Part shown: piece after piece, positions 316 to 35,360 of the stretch
Position numbering within the stretch: the stretch's first letter is position 1
How the letters are laid out: each line of letters opens with the position of its first letter
Notes under the pieces: model-generated
Database searches by the model: none
What the model saw: the letters and a program-made list of their open reading frames with translations, nothing else
Told to the model about the DNA's origin: nothing
Source of the DNA: a bacterium
GTDB lineage: Bacteria; UBA9089; CG2-30-40-21; SBAY01
DNA: 35,394 nucleotides
Assembly: GCA_040757115.1 (NCBI GenBank)
Contig: JBFLYA010000012.1
Coordinates: 1 to 35,394, forward strand
Direction of reading: 5' to 3'
Position numbers and translations under genes: made by a program

Positions 316-557
316 GTAACCGTTCAGCCACAGAGGCTCAGAGTTCACAGAGAATTAGAGAAATTAGCCACAAATGGACACGAATTAACCTCTGACATTC
401 GATAAATGTAGTGCGAACCTTTAGGTTCGCTTTCCTGCTTGCCAGAAGCGAGGCTAACGTCTCGCACTACAAATCTTTTTATTATTCGTGTTCATTCGTG
501 GTTATATATTCCCTCTGTGTTCTCTGTGACTCTGTGGCTATATCCCTGAACGGTTAC
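316..557. mobile_element. Type-A MITE-like element with nested hairpin layers
   Basis: Perfect 12-bp terminal inverted repeat GTAACCGTTCAG/CTGAACGGTTAC. Inner inverted pairs are GCCACAGAG/CTCTGTGGC and GACACGAAT/ATTCGTGTT. Confidence 0.8.
408..470. repeat. REP doublet (REPIN-like), GTAG type
   Basis: GTAG-T-GCGAACCT-TT-AGGTTCGC faces an inverted partner GCGAGGC-TAAC-GTCTCGC-A-CTAC. This is the GTAG-plus-palindrome architecture of RAYT-associated REPs. Confidence 0.65.
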
Positions 558-668
558 CAATTTTAAAGCAGCCAGCTCCTTTAATTTTTGAGAAAACTGC
601 TACTTTGTAGTACCCAGAACAGCAAGAACCTCATCTGGTATCCCTACTTGAGCTACACTCATACCCAT
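558..668 (-). pseudogene. UPF0175-family putative antitoxin 5' fragment with an in-frame stop, truncated at the type-A element
   Basis: GGAGGTGA RBS. Translation MGMSVAQVGIPDEVLAVLGTTK*QFSQKLKELAALKL ends at the element boundary (557). Confidence 0.6.
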
Positions 669-745
669 TAAAGTCACCTCCTTGATAGGAATTTGCTTTT
701 TGACTGTTTTTAGATTGTGTATCCATTTTTAGCCATTCTGAAGAT

Positions 746-774
746 ATTCTATCACAAATTTTATCCTATGTCAA
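746..774 (-). promoter_or_regulatory. Sigma70-type promoter, leftward
   Basis: TTGACA-17 nt-TAGAAT on the minus strand. Confidence 0.55.
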
Positions 775-836
775 CAAAAAATCCCAGTCTATTTATCCCG
801 CAATTTGATTTTTTTTAATTTTAATTAAAAAAAATG

Positions 837-865
837 TTGACAAAATTAAAGAAAAAGTGTAAAAT
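837..865 (+). promoter_or_regulatory. Sigma70-type promoter for the TPR gene
   Basis: TTGACA-17 nt-TAAAAT. Confidence 0.6.
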
Positions 866-911
866 ATATTCTAATTATAATTATCTTCAGAAAAGCTAAT
901 TATAATAATGT

Positions 912-1035
912 GTAATTATTTAGCCATCTGAAGTGAAACAACAGGCAATGGTTGTTAGGTTCAGGGAGCAAGGTAAAAAATAAGCTCCAGTGCTTCGTGA
1001 ATTTACTGTCTCACTTCACGGGGGTAAATAATTAC
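912..1035. mobile_element. Degenerate type-A element
   Basis: Ends GTAATTATTTAG / GTAAATAATTAC (11/12 inverted match). Internal stem GAAGTGA...TCACTTC. Confidence 0.55.
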
Positions 1036-2706: not shown

Positions 2707-2844
2707 TATAGTAGTTATTAACGAAAATTTCTCATAGAACAGATATAGCAACAGGGTTGATGGTTGATAGTTTATAGTTGATAGTTTCATAGACTATCAA
2801 CTATCAACAATACTAATGTGAACTTTTGGTTAATACTTACTATA
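2707..2844. mobile_element. Type-C MITE-like element (TATAG ends) between tRNA-Trp and secE
   Basis: Imperfect TIR: TATAGTAGTTATTAACGAAAATTTCTCA versus reverse-complemented right end TATAGTAAGTATTAACCAAAAGTTCACA. Cargo is a GATAGTT/AACTATC heptamer hairpin. Confidence 0.7.
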
Positions 2845-3091: not shown

Positions 3092-3092
3092 A

Positions 3093-3623: not shown

Positions 3624-3772
3624 CAAAGGTCAGCTTTTTCATCCGGACTACCTCCTTAATGTTTGGGGCAATGTCTAAAAAGACAACCCTCTTCTATTAT
3701 ATCAGATATCGGGTAGTCTGGATGACTTTTTATAAATCTTTTTTAATATCTTTGAAATATAAAAGTATTATA
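3624..3772 (-). mobile_element. Probable IS left-end remnant: -10 box plus RBS/ATG sequestered in a long stem, pointing into nusG
   Basis: 14-bp inverted repeat at 3639-3652/3712-3725. On the minus strand TATAAT (3696-3701) is in the loop and TAAGGAGG-ATG (3642) overlaps the 3' arm. Only MKKLTF remains before nusG sequence. Confidence 0.45.
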
Positions 3773-3773
3773 C

Positions 3774-4288
3774 CAGACCTCGAAAGCAGAATTAACTTGA
3801 CAAAATGAGAAAGATAAAGATTATGTTATTATAAAAGTTATTATGGCAAGACCACAAGACCATGGAGAGTACAATACCAAGGTGCAATATATCATGTAAT
3901 GTCCAGAGGGGTGGCTCAACAGGAGATATTTCGTATTGAAGATGACTATCATCGATTTTTAGACTATCTTGAGAAGAGTGTGGATAAATATGGATTAGAG
4001 ATATTTGCTTTTGTGCTAATGTCGAATCATTATCATTTATTTGTGCGAACAAAGGAGGCAAATCTTTCTAATGCACTACAATGGTTGCAAACAGAAAGGG
4101 ATGTAGCCATTTATATATTATATATAGTCATACTGGATTGAGTAATAAAGAGATAGGTGAGATATTTGGAGTAAGTCCAACAGCGATAGGTAAGGCAAGT
4201 ATCCGAGTAAGAAATCAGATGAGCGACCATAAAGGATTTAAAAAGAAGGTAGAAGATATAGTTAATTCTGCTTTCGAGATCTGACCCC
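3774..4288 (+). mobile_element. Decayed HUH (Y1/RAYT-like) element with 24-bp inverted ends
   Basis: CAGACCTCGAAAGCAGAATTAACT (3774-3797) versus AGTTAATTCTGCTTTCGAGATCTG (4260-4283), 23/24 inverted match. Followed by a duplicated TGACCCCAATAT. Confidence 0.7.
3843..4284 (+). pseudogene. REP-associated-type tyrosine transposase (Y1_Tnp plus C-terminal HTH), frameshifted and internally deleted
   Basis: MARP.WRVQYQGAIYHVMSRG after removing an 8-bp duplication (CAAGACCA). HUH motif LMSNHYHL. Abrupt jump to a C-terminal HTH (TGLSNKEIGEIFG) with a second frameshift. Confidence 0.85.
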
Positions 4289-4311
4289 AATATAGTTTCG
4301 TGACCCCAATA

Positions 4312-4470
4312 TGGTTTGTCCTTTGGGATAGGAGGACAGCCCTTGCCCCTGCGGTTAAAAAGGCAAAGGAACTTGAGGAAAGGGAAGAAAGGATAGAAAA
4401 GGCGCTCAAGGAATATGCGATTCAACAACCTAAATTAGCAGCAGTTTTAAGAGAAGTTGGAATTTTGTAA
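4312..4470 (+). pseudogene. Orphan 3' fragment of a TM/coiled-coil hypothetical protein (WFVLWDRRTALAPAVKKAKELEEREERIEKALKEYA...GIL*)
   Basis: Protein-like frame with a stop but no start or RBS. Begins at the transposase element edge. Confidence 0.5.
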
Positions 4471-4494
4471 AAACTTGACTAAAGATGAAACACT

Positions 4495-4630
4495 TATGTT
4501 CACAGCGAGTGGACATAAATGAAGAGGAAAATTAATGGGACGCAGATTTTCGCAGATAAACACAGATGAATTAGAGAATTAGATTTTTAACTTTGTGTGT
4601 CTTTGTGTAAAGAAAACTATTTTCAGGAAA
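4495..4630 (+). mobile_element. Single type-B unit (ATG-hairpin head, cargo, ATTTTCAGG tail)
   Basis: TATGTTCAC..GTGGACATAAATGAAGAGGAAAATTAATGGGACGCAGATTT matches 13756-13809. Ends ATTTTCAGGAAA. Confidence 0.65.
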
Positions 4631-4675
4631 AAACAATAACTTTGTTCTTTGACAATTTAATATGTTTTTTTTGTG

Positions 4676-4705
4676 TTGACAGAGGAAAGAGAGTAGTGGT
4701 ATAAT
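4676..4705 (+). promoter_or_regulatory. Sigma70-type promoter with extended -10
   Basis: TTGACA-18 nt-TATAAT with a TGn extension. Confidence 0.65.
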
Positions 4706-4727
4706 GGATAAGTGATGAGGTGAAGAG

Positions 4728-4937
4728 ATGGGGAAGAAAGATAGAAGACAGAAGTCAGAAGTCAGAGAACAGAAAAAGAGGAAGTGGAAGGTTCATCTTA
4801 AAATTCCAAAGTTTCTCATTCCAAAGGATGAGCCGATTGTGCCAAAGGCATTTACTCCAATAGATTATGTGGGTGGGATAGTGGTATTTTTTATCTGCGG
4901 GAGAGTATATCTATATACGATAGAGGAAATGGAATAA
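4728..4937 (+). pseudogene. Short ORF resembling the N-terminus of a DUF2723/TMEM260-like membrane glycosyltransferase, truncated
   Basis: GAGGTG RBS, basic N-terminus and a TM segment ending VYLYT, where DUF2723 domains typically begin. Stops immediately afterwards. Confidence 0.4.
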
Positions 4938-4938
4938 T

Positions 4939-6813
4939 ATGGGTAAGAGGAAAAAGAAAATAAAGAAAATTAATCAAAAAACTCAAAAATCAATAATTAA
5001 AGATTTGTTAAGAAAACGATTATTTAAAAAAGAGAATTATATTATAGCAGGGATACTCATTTTTGCGTTTATTCTTCGATTAATTCACCTTTTTCAAATG
5101 CAAAGTAATTATCCCGAATTTTACTCACCTAACCCAGGAACAGATATGGGAATGTATGATAAAGCTGCTATGGAGATAGTTCATGGTAATCCAATAAAAG
5201 GTCCATTTTATTATAATCCTTTGTATTATTATTTCTTAGCCTTAAATTATTATTTATTTGGACATAACCTATTTATTATAAGATTAATCCAGGCATTATT
5301 AGGAATTATTACAGGTATATTAACATATTTTATTGCTAAAAAGATATTCAATGAAAAGGTAGCTATAATTTCTCTTTTGCTTTATGCCTTATGTGGTTAT
5401 CTTATATATTATGAAGGAGTACTCTTATCAATAAGTTTAACTACTTTCTTATGTGTAGCATCTATTTGGTTCTTTTTTCAAGCAAGGGAGAAAAAATCAA
5501 ATAAAAGATTTATCATTGGAGGTATGTTATTAGGACTGGCGACTCTTTCTCAACCTAATACTATTCTTTTTCTTCCATTTGTTCTTTTATGGATATTATT
5601 AGAGTTGAAAGAGGATGTAATAAAAAGAAGATTACAAAGATGTGCTATTGTTCTTTTAGCCTGTTTTGCAGCTATTTCTCCGATTACTATTAAAAATTAC
5701 CTTGATTCAGGAAGATTTGTTTTAATCACAACAAGTGGGTCTTTTAACTTTTGGTTAGGTAATCACGAACATTCATCAGGATGGTTTGATTTTTTTGATA
5801 GAGATTTAGAAAGACTTGAAGAAAATAAAAAGAGTGATAAGAAAATAAATGATGTTTATATAGAAGATGTGATAAGATTTATTAAAAAAGATCCACTAGA
5901 TTATCTAAAACTTTTCATAAAAAAGATACTTTTATTCTGGGGAGAATGGGATATACCTCATCAGGTACATTATGGGAAAGGTAAATTTTACTCTCCTTTA
6001 TTAAAATGCCCATTTATTCTTGATTTTGGTTTATTAGCAACATGGGGAGTTGCTGGAATATTTCTTTCTCTTAAGAGATGGTTGAAGAAAGGATTATTAC
6101 TTTATTTTTTTATTTTTGCATATAGCTTTTCAGTAGTGATTATAATGGTTAATGGAAGATATCGTCTTCCTGTGGTCCCTTTTCTTATAATCTTTGCGGG
6201 TGTTTTATTCATTTATTTATATGAGAAATTTAAAAAACGAAGATTTATCTCTCTATTCTTTTCTTTCTGGATATTAATCTTCTCAATTCTATTTGTAAAT
6301 TCTCAATTTGTTTATGCTAAAATATTTTGTATAATTAACCCTAATGGAATGTATATAGAAAGGGATAATACCCTTTTTATTAGCGATAATAGTGAAAAAT
6401 GTGCTTGGGAAGAAACAATTTCTATAAATTCACCTAATATGAAACTTAAAAAGGAATTCATTTTAATAAATGATATCTCATTTTTTAAAGAAGGGAAATT
6501 GTCCTTTGATTATATTTTTCAAGGAAATGGACATTTCATTTGTAGTATTAATGGGATAGATTCTCCACCAGCAATTTTATCATCGGATGGATTTATACAT
6601 AATATAAGATTTAAATTCCCTCCTTATTTATTAAAAAGAGGATTAAATAGTATCATTTTTAAAATTACAAATGAAGGAAAGTTAGATATACCTGTCAGTA
6701 AATATTATAATTATGAAAGATCCTATATTTATGATGGGATAAAGTGGAAAAAGATAAATGGGGAATATTTAATTCAATTAGAATTGATAAAATTTAAAAA
6801 GGAGGATTTATAA
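4939..6813 (+). CDS. GT-C fold glycosyltransferase (ArnT/PMT, GT39/GT83-like) with soluble C-terminal domain
   Basis: TDMGMYD after TM1, YNPLYYYFL, multiple TM helices, GRYRLPVVPFL. Paralogous to 33101-34951. Confidence 0.85.
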   Translation: MGKRKKKIKKINQKTQKSIIKDLLRKRLFKKENYIIAGILIFAFILRLIHLFQMQSNYPEFYSPNPGTDMGMYDKAAMEIVHGNPIKGPFYYNPLYYYFLALNYYLFGHNLFIIRLIQALLGIITGILTYFIAKKIFNEKVAIISLLLYALCGYLIYYEGVLLSISLTTFLCVASIWFFFQAREKKSNKRFIIGGMLLGLATLSQPNTILFLPFVLLWILLELKEDVIKRRLQRCAIVLLACFAAISPITIKNYLDSGRFVLITTSGSFNFWLGNHEHSSGWFDFFDRDLERLEENKKSDKKINDVYIEDVIRFIKKDPLDYLKLFIKKILLFWGEWDIPHQVHYGKGKFYSPLLKCPFILDFGLLATWGVAGIFLSLKRWLKKGLLLYFFIFAYSFSVVIIMVNGRYRLPVVPFLIIFAGVLFIYLYEKFKKRRFISLFFSFWILIFSILFVNSQFVYAKIFCIINPNGMYIERDNTLFISDNSEKCAWEETISINSPNMKLKKEFILINDISFFKEGKLSFDYIFQGNGHFICSINGIDSPPAILSSDGFIHNIRFKFPPYLLKRGLNSIIFKITNEGKLDIPVSKYYNYERSYIYDGIKWKKINGEYLIQLELIKFKKEDL

Positions 6814-6818
6814 AGAAA

Positions 6819-9800
6819 ATGTATAAAAGAAAAATTTTATTGATAGGGATATTAATATTTATAGGAATAGGAAATAATATAGAAATTGCGAAAGCAGAGG
6901 TAGTAGAAGTAAGTGGAAATGTATATGGAACATGGACTAGTGGCAACATCTATGTTGCCACTGATACAATCAGTGTAGCGAGTAATACCACTTTAACTAT
7001 TCAACCTAATGTAATAGTGAAGATTACTCCGGGTAAAAGATTAAATGTGTATGGTAAGTTGATTGCGGAAGGTATAGAATCAGGAACTATCACTTTTACT
7101 TCTTTAAAGGATGATATTGGAGGAGATACAAATGGAGATGGAACATCTACCTCTCCTACTGCTGGAGATTGGAGTGGATGCATTTTTGATGGTGAGGGAA
7201 GTATAGGTAGCAAACTAGATCACTGTGTAGTAAGGTATACTTACAAATATGGAATTTCCATTATTTCATCTTCTATTTCTATTAATAATTCTGATATTTG
7301 TGAAGTTTATGCTACCTGGGAAGGAGGTGAATATGTAGAAGTTCCTTCTTATGGAATTTATGTTTCATCAGGTACCTTAACCATTGTCAACTCCAATATT
7401 TTTAATATTTCTTCTTATGCACTGGGAGAGCGTTTTGGACAACCCCTTGGATATGGAATTTATATTTCTGGTGGTATTGTATATATTAGTAATTGTAATA
7501 TTTTAAAGATTAGAAGTAGTAATGATTTGTATGGAGTATCAAAAGCCTATGGAATTTATGGGTCATCTACCATATCTTATATCAATAACTCTAATTTTTC
7601 TCAAATTGAAGGAGAAACCAATATTGCCTCATCAGAAGCCTATGGAATTTACTTTTCTAACTCATCTGTTTTTATTAATGATGAAAACTACATTTCACAA
7701 GTAACAAGTAAAGGTAGTTCTTATGGAATATATGTTTGTAATTCATCATCTCCATTCACCATTTTAAACTCTAAGATTTTTAAAATCATAGGTAATGGCT
7801 ATGCTTACGGAATTTATCTTTCCAATATATTATCTGAAGGTATCATTCGTGGTATTAATATATTCGAAGTTAAGGGAAGAAATAATGGATATGGTCTCTA
7901 TCTGCTCTCTGGACAATTGTCAATTATGGATAATGAGATTTATGATATTAAAGGAGAGTGTGTTGGATATTATGGTTTAGGTTATGGATATGGTATTTAC
8001 ATAGTTTCTGGACAAGTATCAATTATGATTAATAACATTTATGATATTAAAGGAATTGCTAATTTTTCATGGAATGAATTTGGATATGGTATTTATCTAT
8101 CCCAAACACAATCATCAATATTAGGTAATAACATTTATGACATAGGGAGTGGAGGTACTACCTATTACTTATGGGCAGATGGTACACAGACAGCAGAATA
8201 TAATTGGTGGGGTAGTACCTTTCCAATTCCTTTTAACTTCTCTAACAATATTGATTATGACCCTTGGCTGAAAGGAACATATACAGGATACGCACTAATT
8301 ACTATTTTACCTACTTATGGAACGGTGGGAAACTTGGTATCTATAAGAGGTATTGGTTACAATCCAACAGAGCAAATAAAAATCGATTTTGGGACATCAT
8401 ACAATTATACCGAAGTATCAACAAACGCCGATGGTATGTTTTCTACTTCCTTCATTGTAAATACGCAACCTTATGGCCCTACTTCAATTGTAGCTACTGG
8501 GTTAAGTTCTAATAAAACTGCTTCGAATTACTTTCGTATCCTACCTCATATTTTATTTGTATCACCCAGTAGCGGTACTATTGGAAGTTTTGTTACCATT
8601 GAAGGTAATGGATTTGGTAAGATGGATACTATACGGGTTGATTTCGGAACAACTATATCTATCTGTAATATAATGTCAAATACCTATGGGACATTTATTG
8701 CTACCTTTACCGTAGATACTCAAGCCTATGGAACCATTCCTATTGGCTGTTATGGGATGACATCAGGTGCCTATGACTATGAATACTTCTTTATCAGAGG
8801 GAATATTGTCTGGATAAGTCCAACGCAGGGAACTGTTGGTTCGGCTGTGACTATAATGGGCAACGGCTTTGGAGCAACTGAACTAATCGGCATAGATTTT
8901 GGCACCACACTAAACATTAACCAGTGCACCACGACTACAGACGGGAAATTTACTACCCTATTTACGATAGATACCCAACCTTTCGGCATTACTACTATTA
9001 CAGTTAGAGGGATGCAGACTGGTTTGGTGGATAAGGCTGGATTTACTATCCTGCCAAATATTGCCCTTATCAGCCCTATTTCTGGGACTATCGGTTCTAT
9101 TGTCACCGTAATGGGTAATGGATTTGGTGCTACGGAATTGATCAGGATTGAATTTGGTAATATTCGTACTATTACCACTGTTTATACTTATGCTACTGGG
9201 GAATTTCAGACAGTATTTACAGTAGATTCTCAGCCGATTGGGACAACGACTATCATTGCTCATGGTTTGATGACTAATGCCTATGCTCTGGCACAGTTCA
9301 TTATTCTTCCATTAACTACTTTAAAGATTACACCTGCCTTACAAAATGTAGCTGTTAATTCAACATTTACCTGCCAGGTGGAGATAGAGGATGTGGAAAG
9401 ACTAAGAGGTGTGGAATTACATCTTAGTTTTAATCCCAATATCCTTGAAGTAAAAGAGATTGGGACAGGTACATTTCCACCAGATGGTTGGGTAATGCAG
9501 AATAAGTATGATAATATCAAAGGAGAGATAGATTATACCATTGGGTTGATTTCTGGCTCTGCTACTGGTTCAGGGGACATTTGTAAAATAAAATTTAAAG
9601 CAATATCAGGTGGTACATCAACTGTAATATTTGATTTTACTAGACCCAACCGTATCACAAAACTATTAGATATAGGAAACAACGGAATTCCATTTAAGAA
9701 AGAAGAGACTATGTATCAGGTAATCACTGGTATCGAAATCAAGCCAAAAGATAAAGAGATTCGTGCAGATGAAACTATTGATTATACCTGCCTTGCATCA

Positions 9801-11588: not shown

Positions 11589-11654
11589 AGCAGAGAGTAG
11601 AAAGTAGAGAGTAGAGAAAAAACTATCTTGCTACTCGATATTTATTCAATTTCC

Positions 11655-11769
11655 GTAACCGTTCAGGTGATAATTTACCGCAGAGACGCAAGAGGACACA
11701 CCCCTAACCCCTCTCAAGAGGTGTGTGTTTTTCTCTGCAAACTCTTTTGTCTGTGCGGTGAACGGTTAC
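11655..11769. mobile_element. Type-A element directly upstream of rplK
   Basis: GTAACCGTTCAG ... GTGAACGGTTAC ends. Inner stem CCGCAGAGAC/GTCTGTGCGG around a CCCCTAACCCCTCTCAAGAGG module. Confidence 0.75.
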
Positions 11770-11820
11770 CTACAAGCTTTAGTGTGCATCCTTTTCGCGA
11801 GACATTTACAGGAGACTAAT

Positions 11821-12255
11821 ATGGCAAAAAAGAAAAAGGTTGTTAAGGAGATTAAATTACAGATACCGGCTGGAAGGGCTAATCCCGCTCCACCCGTAGG
11901 TCCTGCCTTAGGACAGGCAGGGGTAAATATTATGGAGTTTTGTAAGGAGTTTAATGCACAAACATCCAATCAGGAAGGTCTAATTATCCCGGTAGTCATC
12001 TCCGTGCACGAGGATAGAACATTTTCCTTTGTTTTAAAAACACCACCTGCGGCTGTCCTTTTAGCTAAAGCCGCGGGGATAGAAAAGGGCTCCGGAGTGC
12101 CTAATAAACAAAAGGTAGCAAAACTTAATATCGAAAAAGTAAAAGAGATTGCGAAGATGAAACTTAAAGATTTAAACGCTTATGACATTGACCAGGCGGC
12201 ACGACAGATTATGGGCACGGCTAAAAGTATGGGAATTGAGATAGAAGGGGGATAA
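11821..12255 (+). CDS. rplK: 50S ribosomal protein L11
   Basis: [39 protein letters not shown] before ATG 11821. Confidence 0.98.
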
Positions 12256-12261
12256 AGTAAA

Positions 12262-12972: not shown

Positions 12973-13027
12973 AGATGATATATTTTCTATAATGAAGATT
13001 ATAATTCTTTGAAAAGGGGTAAATAAA

Positions 13028-13546: not shown

Positions 13547-14136
13547 CCAGGACCAAAGACTATAGACCGAAGACCAAAGGCAAAAAACAGCGGGTAGCTG
13601 GTAGTTTCACGCCAAGCACGCAAAGGACGCAAAGGAAAATAAGGGAAAAAATTACCTTTGCGTCCTTTGCGTGAAAAAACTGTTTTCAGGGGAATGTAGT
13701 TTTGTAAATCTGTGTAATCTGCGAAATCTGCGGATTATTTTCAGGAGAAACCGGGCATGTCCACGGTGGTGGACACAAACGACGATGAAAATTAATGGGA
13801 CGCAGATTTACAGGATTTACAAGATTTTAAAGAAAAACCACTAAGGCACTATAAAAACATCAAGAAACTCTAAGGAAATAACTATAGAAATACAATATAA
13901 AAAATTAATTTTAATCCTGTTCATCTGCGAAAATCTGCGTCCTAATTTACATTTTCAGGGGAAACGGACATGAGCCAGGGCTCACAAAGGGCAATGAAAA
14001 TGGGAGAAAGACAACCCCCTAACCCCCTTTATTAAGGGGGAATATCTGTTCTACACCAGAGGATACGAGTCTGTGGATACTATACTAATTCGCTAATCTC
14101 TAATTCACTAATTCGCTATTTTCAGGGGAAACAGGG
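13547..14136 (+). repeat. Tandem array of type-B units with variable hairpin cargo
   Basis: TTTTCAGG(A/G)GAA motif near 13683, 13737, 13951 and 14118. Full junctions ATTTTCAGGRGAAA..CATG-hairpin-ACAAA..ATGAAAAT at 13737-13792 and 13951-14001. Confidence 0.8.
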
Positions 14137-14514
14137 ATGAGTAGAATTGTAAAGAAAATCGAAATTGAAGGGAAAGAAGTTATGGCACTGTTTGATACTG
14201 GTGCAATGCATACTTATGTCTGCAATGAAATTGTGGGTAGTGCCCCGACAATAATTATCCCGGAGCCGTATAAGGTTGCATTTGATGGGAGAATAATTGA
14301 AGTCAAAAAACTCTGTCTTTTATGGGGTAAAATTGAAGGCAGAGGATTAGATATGGAGGCAGTGCCGATAGATGACATCGGGAGAATAAATGGAAATAAG
14401 ATAGATGTGGTCATTGGCGCATTAACTATGGAAAAGTGGGAAATAATCCCTAATCCAAAAGATGGAACATTAGATTTAACAGGACTCAAACGACGTGAAT
14501 TTATTGAGTTTTGA
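14137..14514 (+). CDS. Retropepsin-like (clan AA) single-domain aspartic protease
   Basis: ALFDTGA catalytic motif and VVIGA C-terminal motif, 125 aa. Confidence 0.85.
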
Positions 14515-14588
14515 AAAGTAATAATTGGGCTATGGTAACTAATTACTATTCACCAATTACCAGTTACCAAAATATAGGAGGTGAAAAA

Positions 14589-14978: not shown

Positions 14979-15107
14979 CAGAAAACAGAGGACAGAAGTC
15001 AGAGCTCAGGTATTTAAGGTATTCCCTATTATATCTGTTATCTGTCTTCTGTCCTCTGAATTTAACTTCTAATTACGGTTATCTGTCCTCTAATTTCTAA
15101 TTTCTGA
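14979..15107. repeat. Heptamer-period inverted repeat (CAGARGA / TCTTCTG type) between rplL and rpoB
   Basis: CAGAAAACAGAGGACAGAAGTCAGAG pairs with TCTGTCTTCTGTCCTCTG. Confidence 0.6.
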
Positions 15108-18616: not shown

Positions 18617-18990
18617 TAGGGTTCTGCAAAATAGGATTTGGGGGAGACAATAAATAAATATTAAATATCAAATATTAAATATCAAAATGCAAAATTACAA
18701 ATCAAATTTCAAATTGGTAATATCTTTGCTTCAAGTATTTTAACGCTGAAAGGAAAGAGATAATTTTACTGAACTGTGGCAAAGATAGTTGATAGTTTAT
18801 AGTTGATAGTTTATAGTTGATAGTAGATAGTTGAAGGACTATAGACTATAAACTATAAACCATAAACTATAAACTATACACTATAAACTATAAACGAGTT
18901 TTGCATTTTGCTCTTTGGAGGAAATTGATAAAAATAGAGGTTTTAAATACCCGCTTAAAAACTACAGTTTCCTAGTTTTGCAGAACCCTA
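18617..18990. mobile_element. Type-D MITE-like element between rpoB and rpoC
   Basis: Perfect 15-bp TIR TAGGGTTCTGCAAAA including terminal TA. Cargo has CAAAATGCAAAA/TTTTGCATTTTG and GATAGTT/AACTATA heptamer hairpins. Sits inside an ACCATTC/TGGTAA repeat tract. Confidence 0.8.
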
Positions 18991-22000: not shown

Positions 22001-23247
22001 AAATAGCTCAAGTTGAAGAAAATGAAATAATCACAGAGATGGCGGGAATAGTTCGGATAGAACCTGAAAAAAGGATTTTGATTGAGGCTAAAGACCGTAA
22101 TATACCGATTAAAACAGGTGGAAAATTATTTGTTAAAACAGGGGATATTGTTCCGGCTAACAAGTTAATTGCTGAATTTGACCCATATCATGAACCAATA
22201 TTAACTGAAGTAGAAGGAACAGTGCAGTTTAATGATATTATTAAAGAAAGAACGCTCCGCGAAGAACTTGATGAAAATACAGGTTTGTTTAGAAGGGTAA
22301 TTATCGAAGACCGTGAAGGAACACTCCAACCTCGAATATGTATTCTCCGTGAAAATCAACCAACTATCAACTATTTTATTCCCAATGGCGCCAGAATAGC
22401 GGTAAATGATGGAGATAAAATTACTGCAGGGATGGTTATCGCTAAATTCCCACAAGAATTAATTAGAACTAAAGACATTACGGGTGGGTTGCCACGAGTC
22501 GCAGAGTTATTTGAGGCTCGAAGACCAAAAGAACCAGCATTAGTTACGGAAATTGATGGTGTGGTAAAATTTAAAGGGCTTAAAGAAAATAAACGAATTA
22601 TTGTTATTGAGAATGAGTCAACCGGGGAAACAAAAGAATACGAAGTCTCACTGGGTAAACATTTGAAGGTTCATGAATATGATGTCGTCTCAGCTGGAGA
22701 CCAATTAACCGAAGGACCAACAGACCCCCATGACATATTGAAAATAAAGGGTGAACGGAAATTACAAGAATACTTAGTTAACGAAATTCAAGAAGTCTAT
22801 CGCCTACAAGGGGTAAATATTAACGATAAACATATTGAGGTGATTATCCGCCAGATGCTGCGTAAATTAGAAGTAACAGATGTAGGTGATACAACATTTT
22901 TATTAGGTGAGCAAGTAGATAAATTCAAATTTGCTCAAATAAATGAAACAATACTCGCTAAAGGGAAAAAGCCAGCACAGGCGAGACCTATTTTACTCGG
23001 TATCACTAAAGCCTCTTTATCTACGGATAGTTTTATCTCTGCCGCATCCTTCCAGGAAACAACAAAAGTTCTCACCGAATCGGCTATTCAGGGTAGAATA
23101 GACCACTTACGGGGATTAAAGGAAAATGTAGTCATCGGACGACTTATCCCCGCAGGCACAGGAGTCCCTAAATATCACAAGATAGAAGTTGCTGTCCCTG
23201 CCCCAGTTCAAGAAGAAGAAATGGGGAACTATTCAGCCACTGATTAA
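19021..23247 (+). CDS. rpoC: DNA-directed RNA polymerase beta' subunit
   Basis: [13 protein letters not shown]-terminal Zn cysteines, [12 protein letters not shown]...[19 protein letters not shown] before GTG 19021. Confidence 0.99.
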
Positions 23248-23329
23248 CACGGATTAGCACGGATAAATACAGAGGTCAGAGGAGAGATGAGAAAGGGGGA
23301 AACGGAGAAGGAAAGGAGACACGAGGCAC

Positions 23330-23739
23330 TATAGCAGTTATTAGTCAAAACTTTACTCAGAGTGGATAAGTAAAAAAAATCCCAAATCCCAAGCACCAAA
23401 TCTCAAATAAACACCAAATTCCGCATACCAAAAAGCGAATTATATCAATTCTATAAAGTTTTTGCCTCTTTGTCAACACGAATGCACACGAATAAGAAGC
23501 AAATATTCCCCCTTAATAAAGGGGGTTAGGGGGTTGTTGACCTATAGGCGTTAAGATATAAGGCTTATTAAAGAGGTAGAAATTAACTAAAATTGATATT
23601 AGAGATTAGTGAATTAGAGATTAGATTTTACTAATTCGCTAATTCGCTTAATTCACTAATTCACTAAATGGAATTTGGAATTTGTGATTTGGAATTTCAT
23701 AGCCATATCTATGTCAAATTTCGATTAATAAGTGCTATA
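23330..23739. mobile_element. Type-C element nested in the type-A element
   Basis: TATAGCAGTTATTAGTCAAAACTTTAC versus reverse-complemented right end TATAGCACTTATTAATCGAAATTTGAC. Cargo includes AAATCCC/GGAATTT arms, an ATTAG/CTAAT hairpin and the CCCCCTTAATAAAGGGGG module. Confidence 0.75.
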
Positions 23740-23863
23740 TATGAAATTGGCAAATATCAAGGTTGGTCTATTGATAAATTTCAATGTGGAAAGATTGAAA
23801 AAAGGCATAAAGAGATTTGTTCTGTCCAATCTTCGTGTCCTTCGTGCTCTTCGTGGTGAATAG
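23738..23863 (+). pseudogene. C-terminal fragment of a GxxExxY (PD-(D/E)XK-like) protein
   Basis: YMKLANIKVGLLINFNVERLKKGIKRFVL matches the typical GxxExxY C-terminus (GLLINFN..L..GIKR). The 5' part is missing at the type-C element boundary. Confidence 0.8.
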
Positions 23864-23884
23864 TTACGTTTAAGACAAAAATGA

Positions 23885-27630: not shown

Positions 27631-27659
27631 TTGACAAAATCTCTTATCTTGTGTATACT
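27631..27659 (+). promoter_or_regulatory. Sigma70-type promoter, likely producing a leaderless mRNA
   Basis: TTGACA-17 nt-TATACT, with ATG 27666 six nt after the -10 and no RBS. Confidence 0.65.
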
Positions 27660-27665
27660 CTTTGT

Positions 27666-28724: not shown

Positions 28725-30722
28725 TTAATCTTTCCACCCATAGAGGTAAAGATTACCTTCTTGAAATAATAATTTTAGATATGTTTGGGCAAAGGTATTA
28801 AAACTTTCTACCTCTTCTTTGGATACACCGTTATCGGGGTAATAATAACAAAATATGACAGTGGTATTGACTAAAATATGGGTGATTTGTTTATTATCAA
28901 AATATTCCTTTATTTGAGATATATCTTTGTATGTAAAAGACTTCCATCCCCACATACTAAAATCAGGTATAAAATTTCGATGACAATAATAACCCTTTTT
29001 CTCACCTATAAAATATATTTTAGCCTCTTTGGGTAGATACTTGTTAATAAATTCCATAGCATTATAATATCCTTTTTCTGCATTTCTACGAACAAAATCT
29101 CCCTTTGACTCAAATCCTAAGATAAAGTTAATTGGATTACGGTAATGAATTATTTGAAACCCATCCCAGCTTAATATAGCTGTCCAAATGCCAAAGATGA
29201 TGATTAAAATTATCCTTTTTAAGAATTTTTTTGAATCAAAAAGGGTGTAAAAAATACTGGTTAAAACTGATGATAAAAGTGGTAATAAAGGTAGGAGGTA
29301 TCTTGAAGAATGTAATCCACAACTCCAAAGAATAAATTTAATCACTATGTAGCAAACAAGGTATACCCCTACAATTTTTAGTTTTCTTATAAAAATTAAA
29401 AGAGGTAAAAACATTAGATAAATTGGGCTAATAGTTGCTCCAAAAGGTAGCGAGCCTAAACAACCATAAATAATAACATTCCAGGGAAGAAGTAAGGAAT
29501 CAATCAAAGTTTTCCCTCCCATTGTAAATACACTATTTGATGTTTGGCCTGTAATTATGTCCATTGGAGTTAAACTTACCTTTCTTATAAATAAATCCTC
29601 CAGATAAGGATAAACGGGATTATGGGTGTAGAAAAAGTTTTTTAGATACCAGGGTGAACCTATCAGACAACAGATAATTCCAAAAATAACAAGGTTGAAT
29701 ATCATCTTTCGTAACCCTATTTTTACTATTCCAAAACCTATAACACTTAAATATAAAATAATCATCGTATGAATTCCAGGATATTTAATTCCGACGATAA
29801 AACCACACATAATTGCCAGAATTATCAGCCATCTGTTTTGATATGAAGTAATCCAATTGAGAAAGGCAAATATAGCTAAGAATTCATAAAAGGTTAAGGC
29901 TAAATCTATATAGGCTGTTCTTGAGAGAAAAATAACTAAGGGACAGATATAAAATATGGCAGAGGCTAATAAAGAACTTTTAGAATTAAAATAGCGTTGA
30001 CTTAAACCGAAGACACCAACCATAGTCAAAACACCAAATAGGAAATGAAATAATTTTGATAGGATATCACTTCCCACTAACATGCCAAGTAAATATAGCA
30101 TAGCAATATTTGCAGGAAAATTGGCAAAGGCAACATCTGGTATGTGGAATATACGGTGGTGTTCTATGAAAAGTTTAGGACCTTCAAGGTGATAGGCTAA
30201 ATCATCCCAGTCAAAAGGAGGACATAATCCGTGTAAAAAACATAATCCGCAGGTTATAACTATAAAAAATAATATAATGATCTCCTGCCCACTAAATCTT
30301 TTCAATGATAAAGATTTTATTCCTCTTGTTATTTCACCAATAGTATTCATTAACCCTTTGAATAACAGAATGATTAAAACAAATATTAATCCATAAGCAA
30401 TTTTAGGCTCAAGTAGTCCTAAAAATCCCAATCCCATGATTAAATAAGACAATATTCCAAATCCTGAACCGAGACTAAAGACTAATCTTTCCTGGATGGA
30501 GTTAAATTCAAACTTACAAATTGAAAGTATTCTAAATCCCAATGTATAGGCTAATAGAGTGATGATAATCAGTAGAAATAGGTCTTGTGCGATGGTATTT
30601 TTAAGATTAAAAAGAAGAAGATAATGAGGATATTGGTGGAGACAAAATAATAGGATTATTCCCATCCAAAGATAAAAGAATAAAGTTAATATTGATGTTA
30701 TGTTCCAACCTCTTTTTAGCAT
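28725..30722 (-). CDS. Multi-TM GT-C fold glycosyltransferase-like membrane protein
   Basis: PPFDWDDLAYHL, TAYIDL, SPWYLKN...NPVYP, RYLLP and many TM helices. ATG 30722 has AAGGA upstream; the ORF track start (GTG 30785) lies in a repeat. Confidence 0.8.
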   Translation of the reverse strand: MLKRGWNITSILTLFFYLWMGIILLFCLHQYPHYLLLFNLKNTIAQDLFLLIIITLLAYTLGFRILSICKFEFNSIQERLVFSLGSGFGILSYLIMGLGFLGLLEPKIAYGLIFVLIILLFKGLMNTIGEITRGIKSLSLKRFSGQEIIILFFIVITCGLCFLHGLCPPFDWDDLAYHLEGPKLFIEHHRIFHIPDVAFANFPANIAMLYLLGMLVGSDILSKLFHFLFGVLTMVGVFGLSQRYFNSKSSLLASAIFYICPLVIFLSRTAYIDLALTFYEFLAIFAFLNWITSYQNRWLIILAIMCGFIVGIKYPGIHTMIILYLSVIGFGIVKIGLRKMIFNLVIFGIICCLIGSPWYLKNFFYTHNPVYPYLEDLFIRKVSLTPMDIITGQTSNSVFTMGGKTLIDSLLLPWNVIIYGCLGSLPFGATISPIYLMFLPLLIFIRKLKIVGVYLVCYIVIKFILWSCGLHSSRYLLPLLPLLSSVLTSIFYTLFDSKKFLKRIILIIIFGIWTAILSWDGFQIIHYRNPINFILGFESKGDFVRRNAEKGYYNAMEFINKYLPKEAKIYFIGEKKGYYCHRNFIPDFSMWGWKSFTYKDISQIKEYFDNKQITHILVNTTVIFCYYYPDNGVSKEEVESFNTFAQTYLKLLFQEGNLYLYGWKD

Positions 30723-30834
30723 AGTCTGATTTCCTTTGGGAGATAAAGGCTTATGACCATTGTTCTGAAAATGCTTTTTTACCACGAAAACACGGAATTA
30801 CGGAAACACGGGATAAAAATCAAAATTTTGTGTC

Positions 30835-30969
30835 TCATAATTTCTGTGCCTTTTCCAATACAGCCGTGGCATAAGCCAGCCAATCTGGTGGTCTAACACG
30901 AGTTTTAGCTGGCCAGCGCTGACATCGACAAAAATCTTTAATAAACGGTGCATTGATAACCCAAATCAT
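30835..30969 (-). pseudogene. Truncated paralogous copy of the B12 radical SAM N-terminus (44 aa)
   Basis: MIWVINAPFIKDFCRCQRWPAKTRVRPPDWLAYATAVLEKAQKL* versus MKTLIINAPFIKDFCRCQRWPAKTRGRVLRMPDWLAYATAVLEEA at 27486. Confidence 0.85.
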
Positions 30970-32068: not shown

Positions 32069-32080
32069 ACATCCTCTAAA

Positions 32081-32261
32081 TAGTGTCGTGTTGAGTAAGT
32101 TTTGCACGGCGTATCATCAGATTTCATAACCTGCAAACGGATAATTGGTAACTGGTTAAATAGTTTCGTCCTGAGATCAGCCGAACGGTATTTAATTACC
32201 AGTTACCAATCACCAGTTACCAGAATCAAATTCCGTGCGTTATTTGTTCAACACGACACTA
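32081..32261. mobile_element. Type-E MITE-like element between ubiA/mqnP and mqnE
   Basis: Perfect 14-bp TIR TAGTGTCGTGTTGA including terminal TA, extending imperfectly to GCACGG/CCGTGC. Cargo is a TGGTAAC/GTTACCA heptamer hairpin. Confidence 0.8.
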
Positions 32262-33098
32262 GAAAATATTATCAATCCATGTCATTACAAATAAAAAAAC
32301 ACTGACCAGGCCATTTACATTGAAAAAGGCAATGTTCACCCGGCTTAAATCAGCAGGGTTGACAAGGGAGTGTTCGTATATCAACATTAAGGAGACCACA
32401 AACACGCCCATAAAGTAGGAAAGCCCAAGCTGAGCTAATACCCCAAACCATAAAAGCAAGATAACCATAAAAAAATGCATCACTCGTGAAATAATCAATG
32501 CCTTTGGAATGCCGAATCTGACTACCATTGATTGAAGTCCATAGGTTTTATCAAATTCAAAATCAAGCGTGGCGTAGATAATATCAAATCCCGCTACCCA
32601 GAAAAGAACAGCTAATCCAAGAACAAGTGGGACTAAAACAATCTCTGATTTTATGGCAATCCAAACACCGATAGGTGCTATAGCCAGAGATAAACCTAAG
32701 AAGATGTGGGTTAGCCAGGTCCAGCGTTTGGTAAAGGAGTAAAAATAAAGAATAGCCAGTGCAACTGGGGATAGATAAAAGGCAAGGTTATTGAGCATAG
32801 CGGCAGAAATAATGAAGATTATGGCTGTAGTTATCGTAAAAAGCCAGATAGATTTAACTGAAATTTCTCCCCGAACAAGGGGTCGGTTTTGCGTTCTTGG
32901 GTTAAGTGCATCAAACCTTAAATCCACCACCCGATTAAATGCCATAGCACTACTTCTGGCACTTACCATTGCCATGAGAATCCAGAATATTACCCAAAAA
33001 GAGGACCAGCCATTTTCACAAACTAACATCGACATTAAGGCAAAAGGCAGGGCAAATATGGTATGTTGAAATTTAATTAGCTCAAATATAACTCTCAT
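32259..33098 (-). CDS. ubiA: UbiA-family prenyltransferase (MqnP-type, menaquinone futalosine pathway)
   Basis: IKFQHTIFALPFA, AMAFNRVVDLRFDALNPRT..RP, GFDIIYATLD. Adjacent to mqnE. Confidence 0.9.
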   Translation of the reverse strand: MRVIFELIKFQHTIFALPFALMSMLVCENGWSSFWVIFWILMAMVSARSSAMAFNRVVDLRFDALNPRTQNRPLVRGEISVKSIWLFTITTAIIFIISAAMLNNLAFYLSPVALAILYFYSFTKRWTWLTHIFLGLSLAIAPIGVWIAIKSEIVLVPLVLGLAVLFWVAGFDIIYATLDFEFDKTYGLQSMVVRFGIPKALIISRVMHFFMVILLLWFGVLAQLGLSYFMGVFVVSLMLIYEHSLVNPADLSRVNIAFFNVNGLVSVFLFVMTWIDNIF

Positions 33099-33100
33099 AC

Positions 33101-34951
33101 TTAATACACCGGATTAGAAAGTAATTCTAATTGAATCATTAACTCTCCTTCGACCTTTTCCCAGTTAATCCCATCTTCAGAAAATGAGGAACGACCAAAA
33201 TTGTAATAATTATCTACCATTATTCCAACCTCTGCCCCTTCTATGACAGTTAAAGTGATAATATTTCGCCCTTTTTTAAGGATTAAATTAGGGTTTTGGA
33301 ACTTAAATCGCACCTGGCGAACAAAAGGACCATAAGGAATATTTTTACAATCTACCACGGAAAATAATATATCATTCATTTTGATTATTAATTTACCTCT
33401 ATCTGTGCAGGAATAGGTTAGACTTATACCTGCAGTATCAAATTTAGAGACATCCTTATTGATAATAATTTCTTTTTTTAGAATTTTCTGCGGTGTGTCC
33501 AATGTCTTTTTTATATCGCCGTGCCAATCGCCGCTATCATCCCGAAACAAAAATCCTTCCCGTTTTTCAAGACAAAATCCATCTGGATAAATCAACGGAT
33601 ATGTCCAGCCATAAAATGTGTGGAAATCAATAACCGTATAAAGAACCAGAAAAAGGATTAATGTTGCAAAAAAGGAGATTAATCTTTTACGCTGGATTTT
33701 TTTATACCAATAATAAATTGTCACGCCGGCAAAGATACTCAAATAAGGAACAATCGGCACTCTAAATCGAGATTGAATAAAGAAGAAAACAATGGCACTC
33801 ATATAGCCAAAGATAACTAAATATAAAAGAAATAAGTTTTTATTTAATCTTCCAAGACTCAGGAATAATCCCATTATTCCTAATGAAGCAACCAGCCCAA
33901 AGGGAATCATTATTCTAAGTAAAGGAGATAGTTTTAAAAATCGGTCATAAACGACATCGTTATCTGGAATTTCATAAGCATTCCAGAACACGGTAATTTT
34001 TTTAAATAAAAGTCGAAGGTATTTCTCAGGTTTTTCCTTGATAAATCTTATGGCATCCTCGCTGTAAAAGTTTTTATTTTTACTACTCATCTCATCCGCA
34101 TAAGGAGGTAAATGATAAAAACCTTCAGAATCCTCATTATTCCCAGCCCAAAAGGCAACAGGTCCCGTGGCGGTCAAAAGAATAAATTTACCGCTATATT
34201 TATAATTACGGTAGGTCACCGGGGCAAAGGTTAGAGCCATACCTAAAACAATAAGCCCACCGGCACATAAAAATCTCTTGTTCATACCCAGTCTAATCAA
34301 TAACCATAATAATAAAAATGGAAAAACTAAAAGAGTAGTGGCACGAGATAATGATGAAAGGGCTAAAATTACCCCTGCGGCAAAATACCATCTCATAGAA
34401 TTTTGTGAGACACTTTTTAAAAGGACAAAGACACTTAACAGGAGTAAAAAACTATCTAAAACGGTTGTCAAAAGCAAGGTTTCATAAACCATAAAGGCAC
34501 CATAAAGGCTACAAATCCCGGCGGCAATCATTCCAATATTTTTATTGAAAAGTTGTTTTGCAATTAAATAGACAATCAGACAAGTTCCTAATCCCATAAA
34601 TATCTGAACAATTATTGCCTTAAATGGCTCATGCCCAACAAAGGAATAGATTAAAGCCAGAAAATAAAAATATAACGGATTATAACTATAAGGCGTTTTC
34701 GATAGCGTTCCATCTAATACCTGCATAGCTAAGGCATCATAACAACCACTATCTGTGCCTTCAAAATGGAGAAAATTAGGGTCGTTATTTTTTACCTGAA
34801 ATAAAAAAATAAGCCTCAAGATTAACCCAATTAAAAGAATGCCAACTAAAATAAATTTATGTTTATGTTTTGATGGGAATTTTTTTATCTTATCTTTGAA
34901 AGAGATATGAGGTAGAGGAGTCTTTTTTTTGTGTAATTTTTTTTTAGACAT
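33101..34951 (-). CDS. GT-C fold glycosyltransferase (ArnT/PMT-like), paralog of 4939-6813
   Basis: TDSGCYD, YNPLYFYFL, SRFRVPIVPYL and a shared C-terminal domain ending ELMIQLEL. Start ATG 34951 after AGGAG; the ORF-track extension to 35059 is repeat DNA. Confidence 0.85.
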   Translation of the reverse strand: MSKKKLHKKKTPLPHISFKDKIKKFPSKHKHKFILVGILLIGLILRLIFLFQVKNNDPNFLHFEGTDSGCYDALAMQVLDGTLSKTPYSYNPLYFYFLALIYSFVGHEPFKAIIVQIFMGLGTCLIVYLIAKQLFNKNIGMIAAGICSLYGAFMVYETLLLTTVLDSFLLLLSVFVLLKSVSQNSMRWYFAAGVILALSSLSRATTLLVFPFLLLWLLIRLGMNKRFLCAGGLIVLGMALTFAPVTYRNYKYSGKFILLTATGPVAFWAGNNEDSEGFYHLPPYADEMSSKNKNFYSEDAIRFIKEKPEKYLRLLFKKITVFWNAYEIPDNDVVYDRFLKLSPLLRIMIPFGLVASLGIMGLFLSLGRLNKNLFLLYLVIFGYMSAIVFFFIQSRFRVPIVPYLSIFAGVTIYYWYKKIQRKRLISFFATLILFLVLYTVIDFHTFYGWTYPLIYPDGFCLEKREGFLFRDDSGDWHGDIKKTLDTPQKILKKEIIINKDVSKFDTAGISLTYSCTDRGKLIIKMNDILFSVVDCKNIPYGPFVRQVRFKFQNPNLILKKGRNIITLTVIEGAEVGIMVDNYYNFGRSSFSEDGINWEKVEGELMIQLELLSNPVY

Positions 34952-35360
34952 ACCATTCTCCTGAAAATAGGAAGTAGAGAGTAGAAAGTAGAGAGTAGAG
35001 AGAAAATCTTTCCTCCACCCTGTTTTTCCCCTATTTTCATTCTCCTGTTGTGAACCCACGGTTCATGAGCATTTCTCCTGAAAATCGGGACTTGGGACTC
35101 GGGAAGAAAGAAACTCTCAGCAATTCCCCCTTAATAAAGGGGGTTAGGGGGTTGTCCTTCTCCCATTTTCATTGCCCTTTGTGAGCCTTGGCTCATGTCC
35201 GTTTCTCCTGAAAATAGCCGTAAGAATAGAACACGGATGACACGGATTTAACGGATTTTCGCTGATTTTTTTCTCTTTTTTCTGTCTTCTATCTGCTCTC
35301 CGCGAATATCCGCATCATCAGCGTCATCAGCGTGCTATTATTTTTCATCGTCCTCGTATA
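34952..35360 (-). repeat. Tandem array of type-B units
   Basis: On the minus strand, full junctions ATTTTCAGGAGAAA..CATG-hairpin-ACAA..ATGAAAAT lie at 35215-35165 and 35085-35033, with a terminal ATTTTCAGGAGAA at 34968-34956. 35123-35215 matches 13951-14043 at 90/93. Confidence 0.85.

Follow-up and report, generated by a model that had tools for sequence, protein, structure and literature searches.

Repeat elements of a ribosomal-protein and RNA polymerase locus

The window analysed here is a 35,394-bp stretch of bacterial DNA, contig C24 of the genome designated G000 (4.32 Mb, 462 contigs, 36.8% G+C), and our subject is the set of hairpin-rich repeat elements that occupy its intergenic regions. 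The window starts with a TPR gene, tRNA-Trp, nusG, an 8.2-kb insert, rplK, rplA and rplJ and continues with a small retropepsin-like open reading frame (ORF), rplL, rpoB and rpoC; genes for glycosyltransferases and radical-SAM proteins and a UbiA gene follow downstream of rpoC on the opposite strand. RpoB has only distant relatives in the named collection, the best full-length matches being at most 68% identical. BLAST searches of the window against the genome showed that nearly all of its intergenic DNA is repeated elsewhere, with sharp internal breakpoints. A search of the whole window against Rfam 15, with E values up to 1, yielded tRNA-Trp alone and a chance match at the same tRNA locus.

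An earlier note on this DNA had described four types of elements with terminal inverted repeats (A, C, D and E) and one asymmetric type (B). It proposed that these ends share one pool of nested cargo modules and form a combinatorial system rather than independent families of MITEs (miniature transposable elements with inverted repeats). An inverted-repeat search of the window recovers the arms of an A element (316-557), of a foldback at 912-1035, and of D and E. For comparison we used G001, an independently assembled genome of the same genus whose genes are 96-99% identical to those of G000; this comparison covered three contig pairs.

Element families with inverted ends

The A-type and A-like features of the window are as follows.

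57..207: right-hand part of an A-family element, with its end at 197-207; ~165-228 BLAST matches in the genome
316..557: A-family MITE of 242 bp with IS66/ISBst12-type ends; its interior belongs to a cluster of 9; flanks without an intact 8-bp duplication
912..1035: low-copy foldback with A-like ends (9/11), identified by its inverted repeat and by BLAST
11655..11769: short A-family MITE of 115 bp upstream of rplK, without an intact duplication
23225..23867: composite with A-type ends (one mismatch in the left one) around a C element

The A ends are exact at 316-557, at 11655-11769 and at the right end 197-207. Two of the assignments made in the earlier note had to be amended. The composite has an exact right end (23857-23867), but its left end at 23225 reads GGAAC at its start and carries one mismatch. 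The stretch at 912-1035 agrees with the A consensus at 9 of 11 positions only and is a separate low-copy foldback with 8-13 BLAST matches. As no uninterrupted paralogue of the host composite was found in the genome, 23225-23867 is unproven as one element. The last seven codons and the stop codon of rpoC (23225-23247) derive from the left end of this A-type element; rpoC of G001 has a different, shorter tail.

A ends are abundant in the genome: their 11-mer occurs 561 times in forward and 583 times in reverse orientation, compared with 9 and 16 times in a control read backwards. They form 287 forward-to-reverse pairs, most of which span 200-300 bp, and the element at 316-557 folds as one long hairpin (z = -12.5, 0 of 200 shuffles as good). 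Exact 8-bp target duplications lie right at the ends of 77 of the 269 assessable pairs shorter than 700 bp, while other duplication lengths were found 0-4 times. A transposase-bearing copy bounded by A ends exists as well (C198:3061-4623, 1,563 bp). Its frame covers positions 3-282 of 284 of DDE_Tnp_IS66 together with DUF6444, and contains two in-frame stops. This copy has no intact duplication, and no A-ended pair of 900-3,500 bp with a duplication was found. The consensus end derived from the 287 pairs closely resembles the inverted repeats of ISDge4, an element described as active in Deinococcus geothermalis, which belongs to the ISBst12 group of the IS66 family and generates an 8-bp direct repeat (PMC12898284). 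An empty-site allele completes the picture: in G001 an A copy with TAATGAAG at its flanks is inserted between rplA and rplJ, at a site that is uninterrupted in the window. Because of the 8-bp duplications, the IS66 copy with the same ends, the likeness to ISDge4 and this filled/empty pair, we identify A as a family of IS66-type (ISBst12-group) MITEs.

What all A copies have in common is the outer 11-13 bases only. Behind them, the 262 interiors were sorted into 58 clusters, of which the four largest comprise 58, 35, 24 and 20 members; every cluster has tandem-repeat arms of its own, so that many interiors do occur under one end type. The end motif is present in more than 10 copies in 22 of the 24 relatives within the phylum, reaching 1,285 in G001, and in 0-8 copies in six more distant genomes. 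The A-type MITE between rplA and rplJ of G001 (contig C401) includes a fragment that, by eye, resembles the C-terminal part of a small nuclease-like protein; similar fragments are present in a nested A/E composite on contig C39 of G001. At another site, G000:C46:19774-20031 and G001:C379 harbour an A-type MITE at the same position, with interiors that are apparently inverted relative to each other.

The remaining elements with inverted ends in the window are the following; P1 denotes a module of ~33 nt discussed below.

2707..2844: C-type, TA-ended MITE, 138 bp in length, whose centre is a GATAGTT/AACTATC heptamer hairpin (2756-2812); missing from this site in G001
18617..18990: D element, TA-ended, 374 bp, in a TTACCA-type tract between rpoB and rpoC; mosaic interior
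23330..23739: C element with a CTAATTC hairpin, a type that normally spans ~249 bp; here 410 bp including a nested insertion
23445..23599: nested small element F of ~155 bp with short inverted ends, carrying P1 (23505-23537)
32081..32261: E MITE of 181 bp, with ends in common with an IS630-family element on C185

The ends of C (2707-2844 and 23330-23739), D and E lie where the earlier note had placed them, and they recur genome-wide (C 14-mer, 93 + 88; D 15-mer, 47 + 51; E 14-mer, 19 + 10). E has 35 ends in the genome and forms five pairs. Four of these measure 181-188 bp; the fifth, of 2,752 bp, holds an IS4-like frame with a match to DDE_Tnp_1, and another insertion sequence is therefore nested there. 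An E-related IS630-family (DDE_3) element at C185:861-2074 (E = 1.8e-20) has the same left end and a right end differing at two positions. On the evidence of these ends, E derives from an IS630-family element present in the genome.

C forms 46 pairs, most of ~222 or 249 bp and none longer than 520 bp, with a common end of ~40 nt behind which at least five unrelated types of interior were recognized by eye. D is represented by 102 ends and only three intact pairs, many of the ends being situated at contig ends (within 300 nt) and many inside a further family, G, described below. The left module of D spans ~95 nt, beyond which the element is a mosaic, and the copy at 18617-18990 folds at z = -8.6 (0 of 100 shuffles as good). 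The D copies at the two sites compared, between rpoB and rpoC and at C189:16781-17041, are both inserted at a TA within a heptamer tract of the TTACCA type, to which many further D flanks belong as well. G001 lacks D at both sites; the exact empty site is unreadable there because the host heptamer tracts have changed, and no paralogous empty copy of a D host site was found in the genome.

Insertion at TA has independent support from two sources. At least 25 paralogues of the C element lack the nested element F, and their flanks overlap by 2-4 bp including the TA; moreover, one IS630 copy is flanked by TA at the middle of its host hairpin, an A MITE. C and D are probably TA-flanked, IS630-like elements and may be mobilized by IS630-type enzymes. 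The earlier note had likened the terminal TA of C, D and E to that of IS630-like elements; of the three, E shares its ends with a DDE_3 element, and C and D are without a proven parent.

The elements nest in one another, as had also been claimed. In the window, F with its P1 module lies inside C, and C lies between A-type ends; other nestings include the IS630 copy inside an A MITE, A copies inside D and, in G001, E inside an A-like element. Among the 77 A copies with a duplication, 22 have flanks that are both repeated elsewhere, as have 13 of 44 C copies; about 30% of the copies of A and C are situated within other repeats.

Family G is not represented in the window and was traced from 44 D left ends with one common outer flank. 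It comprises 74 + 73 ends and 33 pairs, with 10-nt inverted ends and a basic size of 200 bp (e.g. C9:12258-12613 and C149:2526-3795), and exact 8-bp duplications flank 17 of the 33 pairs. One D end, together with D interior (the GATAGTT hairpin or an alternative module), is present in 17 of the 33 pairs, and both D ends in none. In a 1,270-bp G-ended copy with a duplication, a frame matches DDE_Tnp_IS1 at 20.8 bits, below the cut-off of 24.1 bits. The G-with-D composite is a direct case of one interior captured by unrelated ends and then amplified.

Tandem repeats, shared modules and B arrays

The genome is extremely rich in short tandem repeats. At a score of at least 40, we counted 784 arrays of period 7, 420 of period 8, 174 of period 9 and 535 of period 14, compared with 0, 1, 1 and 24, respectively, in a Markov-shuffled genome. 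Arrays with periods of 6-10 lie mostly outside reading frames of at least 100 codons (1,276 of 1,601), although such frames cover 82% of the genome. Tandem copy numbers differ in unit steps between G000 and G001. Three tracts of the window stand outside the elements listed above.

13552..13690 (+): free-standing tract after rplJ, with a GACCAAA repeat and a hairpin of the 9-mer ACGCAAAGG
14533..14570 (+): TTACCA-type heptamer tract upstream of rplL, with ~13 more units in G001
14986..15058 (+): free-standing heptamer-armed hairpin directly after the rplL stop codon

The ACGCAAAGG hairpin also serves as a type of B cargo elsewhere in the genome.

The modules that the earlier note had seen under different ends are shared, both in the window and beyond. 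GATAGTT tracts are found in C (2756-2812) and D (18779-18904), and CTAATTC tracts in B (14078-14118) and C (23598-23667). P1 occurs in B (14011-14043 and 35123-35155) and in C (23505-23537), although the copy in C was brought by the separate nested element of ~155 bp. Genome-wide, the P1 18-mer is present 36 + 31 times, and by eye P1 has sharp edges in ~9 different flank contexts. We tabulated the families of short tandem repeats with at least five arrays (32 families) by element frame, a frame being counted if at least two arrays of the family lie in it. Eleven of the 32 families occur in two or more frame types and four in three or more; the table is approximate because the frames were set by fixed distances from the end motifs. 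Its rows for the two heptamers of the window are the following.

CTAATTC unit type (88 arrays): 33 in C, 46 in B, 5 in A, 2 in D, 9 in no frame
GATAGTT unit type (121 arrays): 47 in D, 11 in C, 5 in A, 1 in B, 60 in no frame

The asymmetric B type is present on both strands of the window, as described in the earlier note.

13683..14136 (+): B array with the junction motif J at 13683, 13738, 13952 and 14119; three units, two of them with a head hairpin
34953..35216 (-): B array with J at ~35214, 35084 and 34967, and P1 at 35123-35155

A B unit consists of J, which holds a Shine-Dalgarno sequence, an optional head hairpin of 56 nt and one of at least 15 types of cargo. J itself has 12 nt (TTTTCAGGRGAA) and occurs in 282 copies distributed over 182 arrays of one to five. 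The head of ~56 nt follows 93 of the J copies; it combines an outer 7-bp stem with an inner hairpin, whose stem changes are compensatory between copies. The cargo comes after the head: 100 complete units fall into 15 types, and 33 adjacent pairs comprise 22 different ordered pairs. One B unit folds at z = -1.6, with 16 of 200 shuffles as good.

Of the 161 arrays that do not run into a contig end, 65 have a final J behind which a frame of at least 80 codons starts, compared with 149 of 910 random positions. The spacing from J to the start codon is mostly 2-5 nt, and J holds AGGAG or GGGG at Shine-Dalgarno distance. Accordingly placed examples exist in the window: the last J of the plus-strand array provides the Shine-Dalgarno sequence for ORF 14137-14514, and the minus-strand array stops 4 nt before the ATG (~34951) of a PMT_2 glycosyltransferase gene. 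The former ORF, between rplJ and rplL, encodes a retropepsin-like protein of 125 residues with a weak Asp_protease_2 match and a DTGA motif. It is conserved in G001, where a second paralogue preceded by J lies just upstream, and has four paralogues in the genome.

A 14-nt form of J was found 175 times in G000, 161 times in G001, 24 times in one other genus of the family and at most three times in each of the other 28 genomes searched. Comparison with G001 showed that the arrays change drastically. Between rplJ and rplL, both genomes have arrays within the operon, with entirely different units; at the C46 locus, G000 has four units (493 bp) more than G001, placed exactly at J; and at two loci on C189 the genomes have the last J in common, with the content upstream of it replaced. 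The variant of J is correlated with the cargo upstream of it (mutual information of 0.21 bits; none of 1,000 shuffles reached this value). The two J copies flanking a unit are of the same variant in 57 of 100 cases, compared with 44 expected, which is too weak to decide on a target duplication. Searches of the genome for paralogues of Y1 transposases, reverse transcriptases and the retropepsin detected the genes and no link to B, and no J was found within 2.5 kb of the five Y1_Tnp loci examined, near which only stray A ends occur.

B is not a transposon in the usual sense; it represents an extra, genus-restricted layer, and only B arrays behave as a true combinatorial cassette system. Most likely, B units spread and reshuffle by recombination or gene conversion through J and the 56-nt head. 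A more far-reaching reading, which we consider rather unlikely, is that they are lineage-specific cassettes composed of a hairpin and a Shine-Dalgarno sequence, site-specifically installed, stacked and exchanged at the 12-nt J upstream of start codons.

Several further observations concern the window outside these elements. The 8.2-kb block between nusG and rplK (3630-11811) is absent from G001, where nusG directly precedes rplK. It contains a Y1_Tnp/RAYT-like pseudogene (3881-4093) within a 24-nt inverted repeat (3774-3797 / 4260-4283), a PMT_2 glycosyltransferase gene and a gene for a 1,589-residue Por_Secre_tail protein. ORF 27651-28589, for which no Pfam match was found, includes an in-frame 27-nt tandem repeat at 28381-28522 (5.3 copies, 89% matches). 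A 61-nt stretch is present both at 27413-27473, near the start of the radical-SAM gene 26044-27486, and at 30899-30959, upstream of the gene 28725-30785, with 93% identity between the two. A promoter and terminator scan of 11500-19100 gave 12 terminator-like sites, compared with 5.7 expected, mostly in P1 or within genes, and was uninformative. In public sequencing data, the stretch is present in three DNA runs of one groundwater study, and no RNA run is listed. Public contigs aligned to 11500-24000 break at elements. Wherever a joint was observed, it led to a further copy of a repeat; the contigs revealed no empty-site form, although such contigs cannot show absence.

Separate families or a single system

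The reading that we favour, at a probability of roughly 70%, is that the intergenic DNA of the genome harbours separate families of non-autonomous elements, together with slippage-prone repeats, which nest, capture and recombine, rather than a single combinatorial system. The end types do not form one family, because their transposases differ (IS66 for A, IS630 for E and probably for C and D, apparently IS1-like for G) and because their target duplications differ (8 bp compared with TA). Much of the module sharing is explained by nested insertion, capture of a nested element by an outer one and slippage-prone tandem repeats. The earlier proposal was therefore right in part: sharing, nesting and the multiplicity of interiors all hold, but its phrase "rather than independent MITE families" does not, given the different transposase families. 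The ends turned out to be abundant rather than rare, the modules shared rather than fixed to one end, and empty-site alleles are present in G001.

A transposase family of its own would mobilize each of them in trans: an IS66/ISBst12-type enzyme with an 8-bp target duplication in the case of A; IS630/Tc1-type enzymes inserting at TA in the case of E, and probably of C, D and F; and an IS1-like enzyme with an 8-bp duplication in the case of G. All this would take place among vast numbers of tandem repeats of 7-9 bases that are prone to slippage. Elements would insert into one another, with a preference for hairpins and repeat tracts; once a nested element had lost one end, it would become cargo of the outer element and be amplified with it. 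Repeat arms would lengthen and shorten by slippage, and recombination between common repeat tracts and junction motifs may exchange interiors. Turnover between the two close genomes is rapid: relative to G000, G001 lacks the C copy at 2707 and D at both sites, its heptamer counts differ and its B content is wholly different.

A number of findings weigh against this reading. No exact duplication was found for 192 of the 269 A pairs, nor for any of the A copies of the window, and no intact A transposase was found in the genome: its sole full copy has two stops, and the other five matches are fragments. The terminal TA of C, D and E proves nothing by itself, because TA belongs to the search motif. 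None of the DDE_3 loci of the genome is bounded by C or D ends, and the resemblance of D to an end of the C145 IS630 copy is confined to 13 of 16 positions. Nesting leaves unexplained that the same units of 7-8 bases recur both free-standing and across frames with differing length and phase; for example, 60 of the 121 GATAGTT-type arrays lie outside any recognized frame. Inverted partners are few, 80 of 1,913 arrays having an array of the reverse-complement unit within 150 nt downstream, compared with 9.8 in the control. The evidence on the side of the unit to which J belongs is contradictory, since its variant tracks the upstream cargo, yet the C46 case suggests travel with the 5' side, and none of these analyses pointed to a mover of the B units. 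Finally, counts of intact elements are lower bounds, because the assembly is fragmented into 462 contigs, with breaks inside D.

A competing explanation is that a single machinery, of the HUH/RAYT type, an IS110-type recombinase or an integron-like enzyme, recognizes the hairpins or J and shuffles cargo among all ends. The cassette-like B arrays, with their wealth of ordered pairs, their complete replacement at the same gene between near-identical genomes and the four-unit block placed exactly at J, are what such an enzyme might produce. So are the sharp edges of P1, and seven Y1_Tnp matches exist in the genome, including the pseudogene of the window with its 24-nt flanking inverted repeat. 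Nevertheless, A and E, and apparently G, have their own transposase-bearing relatives and different target duplications, J is lacking around the Y1 loci examined, and the excess of like J variants flanking units is but a weak sign of target duplication. In addition, A ends are enriched across the phylum and B is confined to one genus, so that A and B are not one system; we regard a common machinery as distinctly unlikely. The fragmented assembly calls for a word on artefacts, i.e. chimeric contigs or collapsed repeats of several organisms produced by metagenome assembly or binning. The breaks at repeats, the many D ends close to contig ends and the public contigs of the probable source sample, which also break at elements, would fit. 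This explanation is largely refuted and hardly credible, in that the elements lie within long contigs and between conserved genes, G001 has the same families at similar numbers (1,285 A ends, 161 junction motifs), and precise 8-bp duplications and a clean filled/empty pair cannot arise by misassembly.

It is also conceivable, if unlikely, that the elements, above all the B units, are retained as expression modules. Placed in leaders or between cistrons, their hairpin, U-rich stretch and Shine-Dalgarno sequence would set mRNA stability, attenuation or translation. The excess of arrays ending at gene starts, the spacing and motifs of J, the presence of arrays inside the rplJ-rplL operon in both genomes and the compensatory changes in the inner stem of the head speak for such a role. 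Precedents are described elsewhere, with heptamer repeats directly before start codons in Beggiatoaceae (PMC4679880) and effects of BOX, Correia and ERIC elements on expression (PMC3049150, PMC10969869). On the other hand, 96 of the 161 arrays do not adjoin a gene start, one B unit folds no better than shuffles, no Rfam match was obtained, and palindromes generated by a copying mechanism also give "compensatory" changes without selection. The two very close genomes have different units at a given gene, which argues against a tuned function of particular units.

Separate families that nest and capture, the reading preferred here, constitute a real and very rich example of a type of bacterial repeat DNA already known in outline. 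Type A resembles the IS66/ISBst12 MITEs, as described for ISDge4 (PMC12898284), in its GTAAC ends, its 8-bp duplication and the single-frame DDE_Tnp_IS66 copy. It departs from that description in that its copies share only ~11-13 terminal bases, with at least 58 interior clusters that have their own tandem-repeat arms, and in its abundance of ~570 copies in 4.3 Mb, with an end motif enriched in 22 of 24 relatives in the phylum. RUP of Streptococcus pneumoniae is described as a MITE derived from IS630/Tc1-mariner elements (PMC3049150), and Correia elements of Neisseria as TA-flanked (PMC10969869). C, D and E are similar to such IS630-derived MITEs in their TA ends, their size of 140-410 bp and their hairpin fold, E in addition sharing the ends of a DDE_3 element. 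Unlike RUP as described, no parent was found for C and D, D prefers one type of heptamer tract, and C has at least five unrelated interiors behind its ~40-nt end. BOX elements of the pneumococcus and S. suis are modular, and in S. suis both boxA/boxC and boxE/boxF enclose boxB (Croucher et al. 2011, PMC3049150); BOX, RUP and SPRITE are reported there to insert into one another. Compared by architecture alone, the elements studied here are like BOX in their modular build, different end pairs around the same module, clustering and mutual insertion, but they have many more types of ends and cargo, and the cargo consists mostly of tandem repeats of 7-9 bases.

Intergenic mosaic arrays of hairpins are also characteristic of REP/BIME mosaics and of REPINs mobilized with RAYTs (PMC3116915), and the genome has RAYT-like Y1 genes. 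No link was found between the Y1 loci examined and any of the families described here, and A and G make target duplications, which REPINs, as described in that source, do not. Membership in the REPIN/RAYT class was rejected on these grounds, the five Y1_Tnp loci being devoid of J within 2.5 kb. B arrays recall integron cassette arrays in their behaviour, without implying membership: both have variable hairpin-rich units, a short conserved junction and an order that varies between strains. Unlike integron cassettes, most B units carry no gene, and they form 182 scattered arrays instead of one; an integrase, an attI site or an attC core motif did not come to light, although no search was aimed at them.

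The STRR of cyanobacteria are intergenic heptanucleotide tandem repeats. With this STRR/LSSR class, in which tandem 7-nt units are over-represented and intergenic, the repeats of our genome agree: period 7 is the commonest, they are intergenic and often in inverted pairs, copy numbers differ in unit steps between close strains, and some stand directly before start codons. They differ from what is described for the class in comprising dozens of units rather than one or two, and many of them are arms, cores or insertion targets of transposons. P1, with its ~33 nt, small hairpin, sharp edges and many contexts including other repeats, recalls the small dispersed repeats of cyanobacteria that were reportedly described by Elhai et al. 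in Genome Res in 2008. In many bacteria, long simple repeats are reported to be most often heptameric (Mrazek 2007, according to PMC4679880 and PMC4692102); Xanthomonas is described as having inverted GGGAATC pairs (PMC4692102), and Beggiatoaceae as having TAACTGA repeats immediately upstream of start codons (PMC4679880). The words "nested", "IS66" and "modular" are absent from a recent MITE review (PMC10969869), and a literature search for repeat elements carrying a Shine-Dalgarno sequence gave nothing relevant among the matches listed.

Frames around recognized ends amount to ~279 kb, compared with 780 kb of DNA outside long reading frames; this is a rough upper bound because the frames are of fixed size and overlaps were not removed. 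Heptamer repeats and MITEs are usually described apart, and here the repeats are the arms, cores and insertion targets of transposons. The G-with-D composite illustrates how separate MITE families can acquire cargo in common: an element nests, loses an end and is amplified by the outer ends. If the reading of the B arrays as cassettes were true, the leaders of dozens of genes would be rewired between strains that are otherwise 96-99% identical, following an integron-like logic without genes in the cassettes. Intergenic repeat DNA turns over between near-identical strains, and the elements reach the ribosomal-protein and RNA polymerase operon, where the end of rpoC comes from one of them and ribosome-binding sites from B units. 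They are therefore relevant to gene calling and expression in genomes of candidate phyla.

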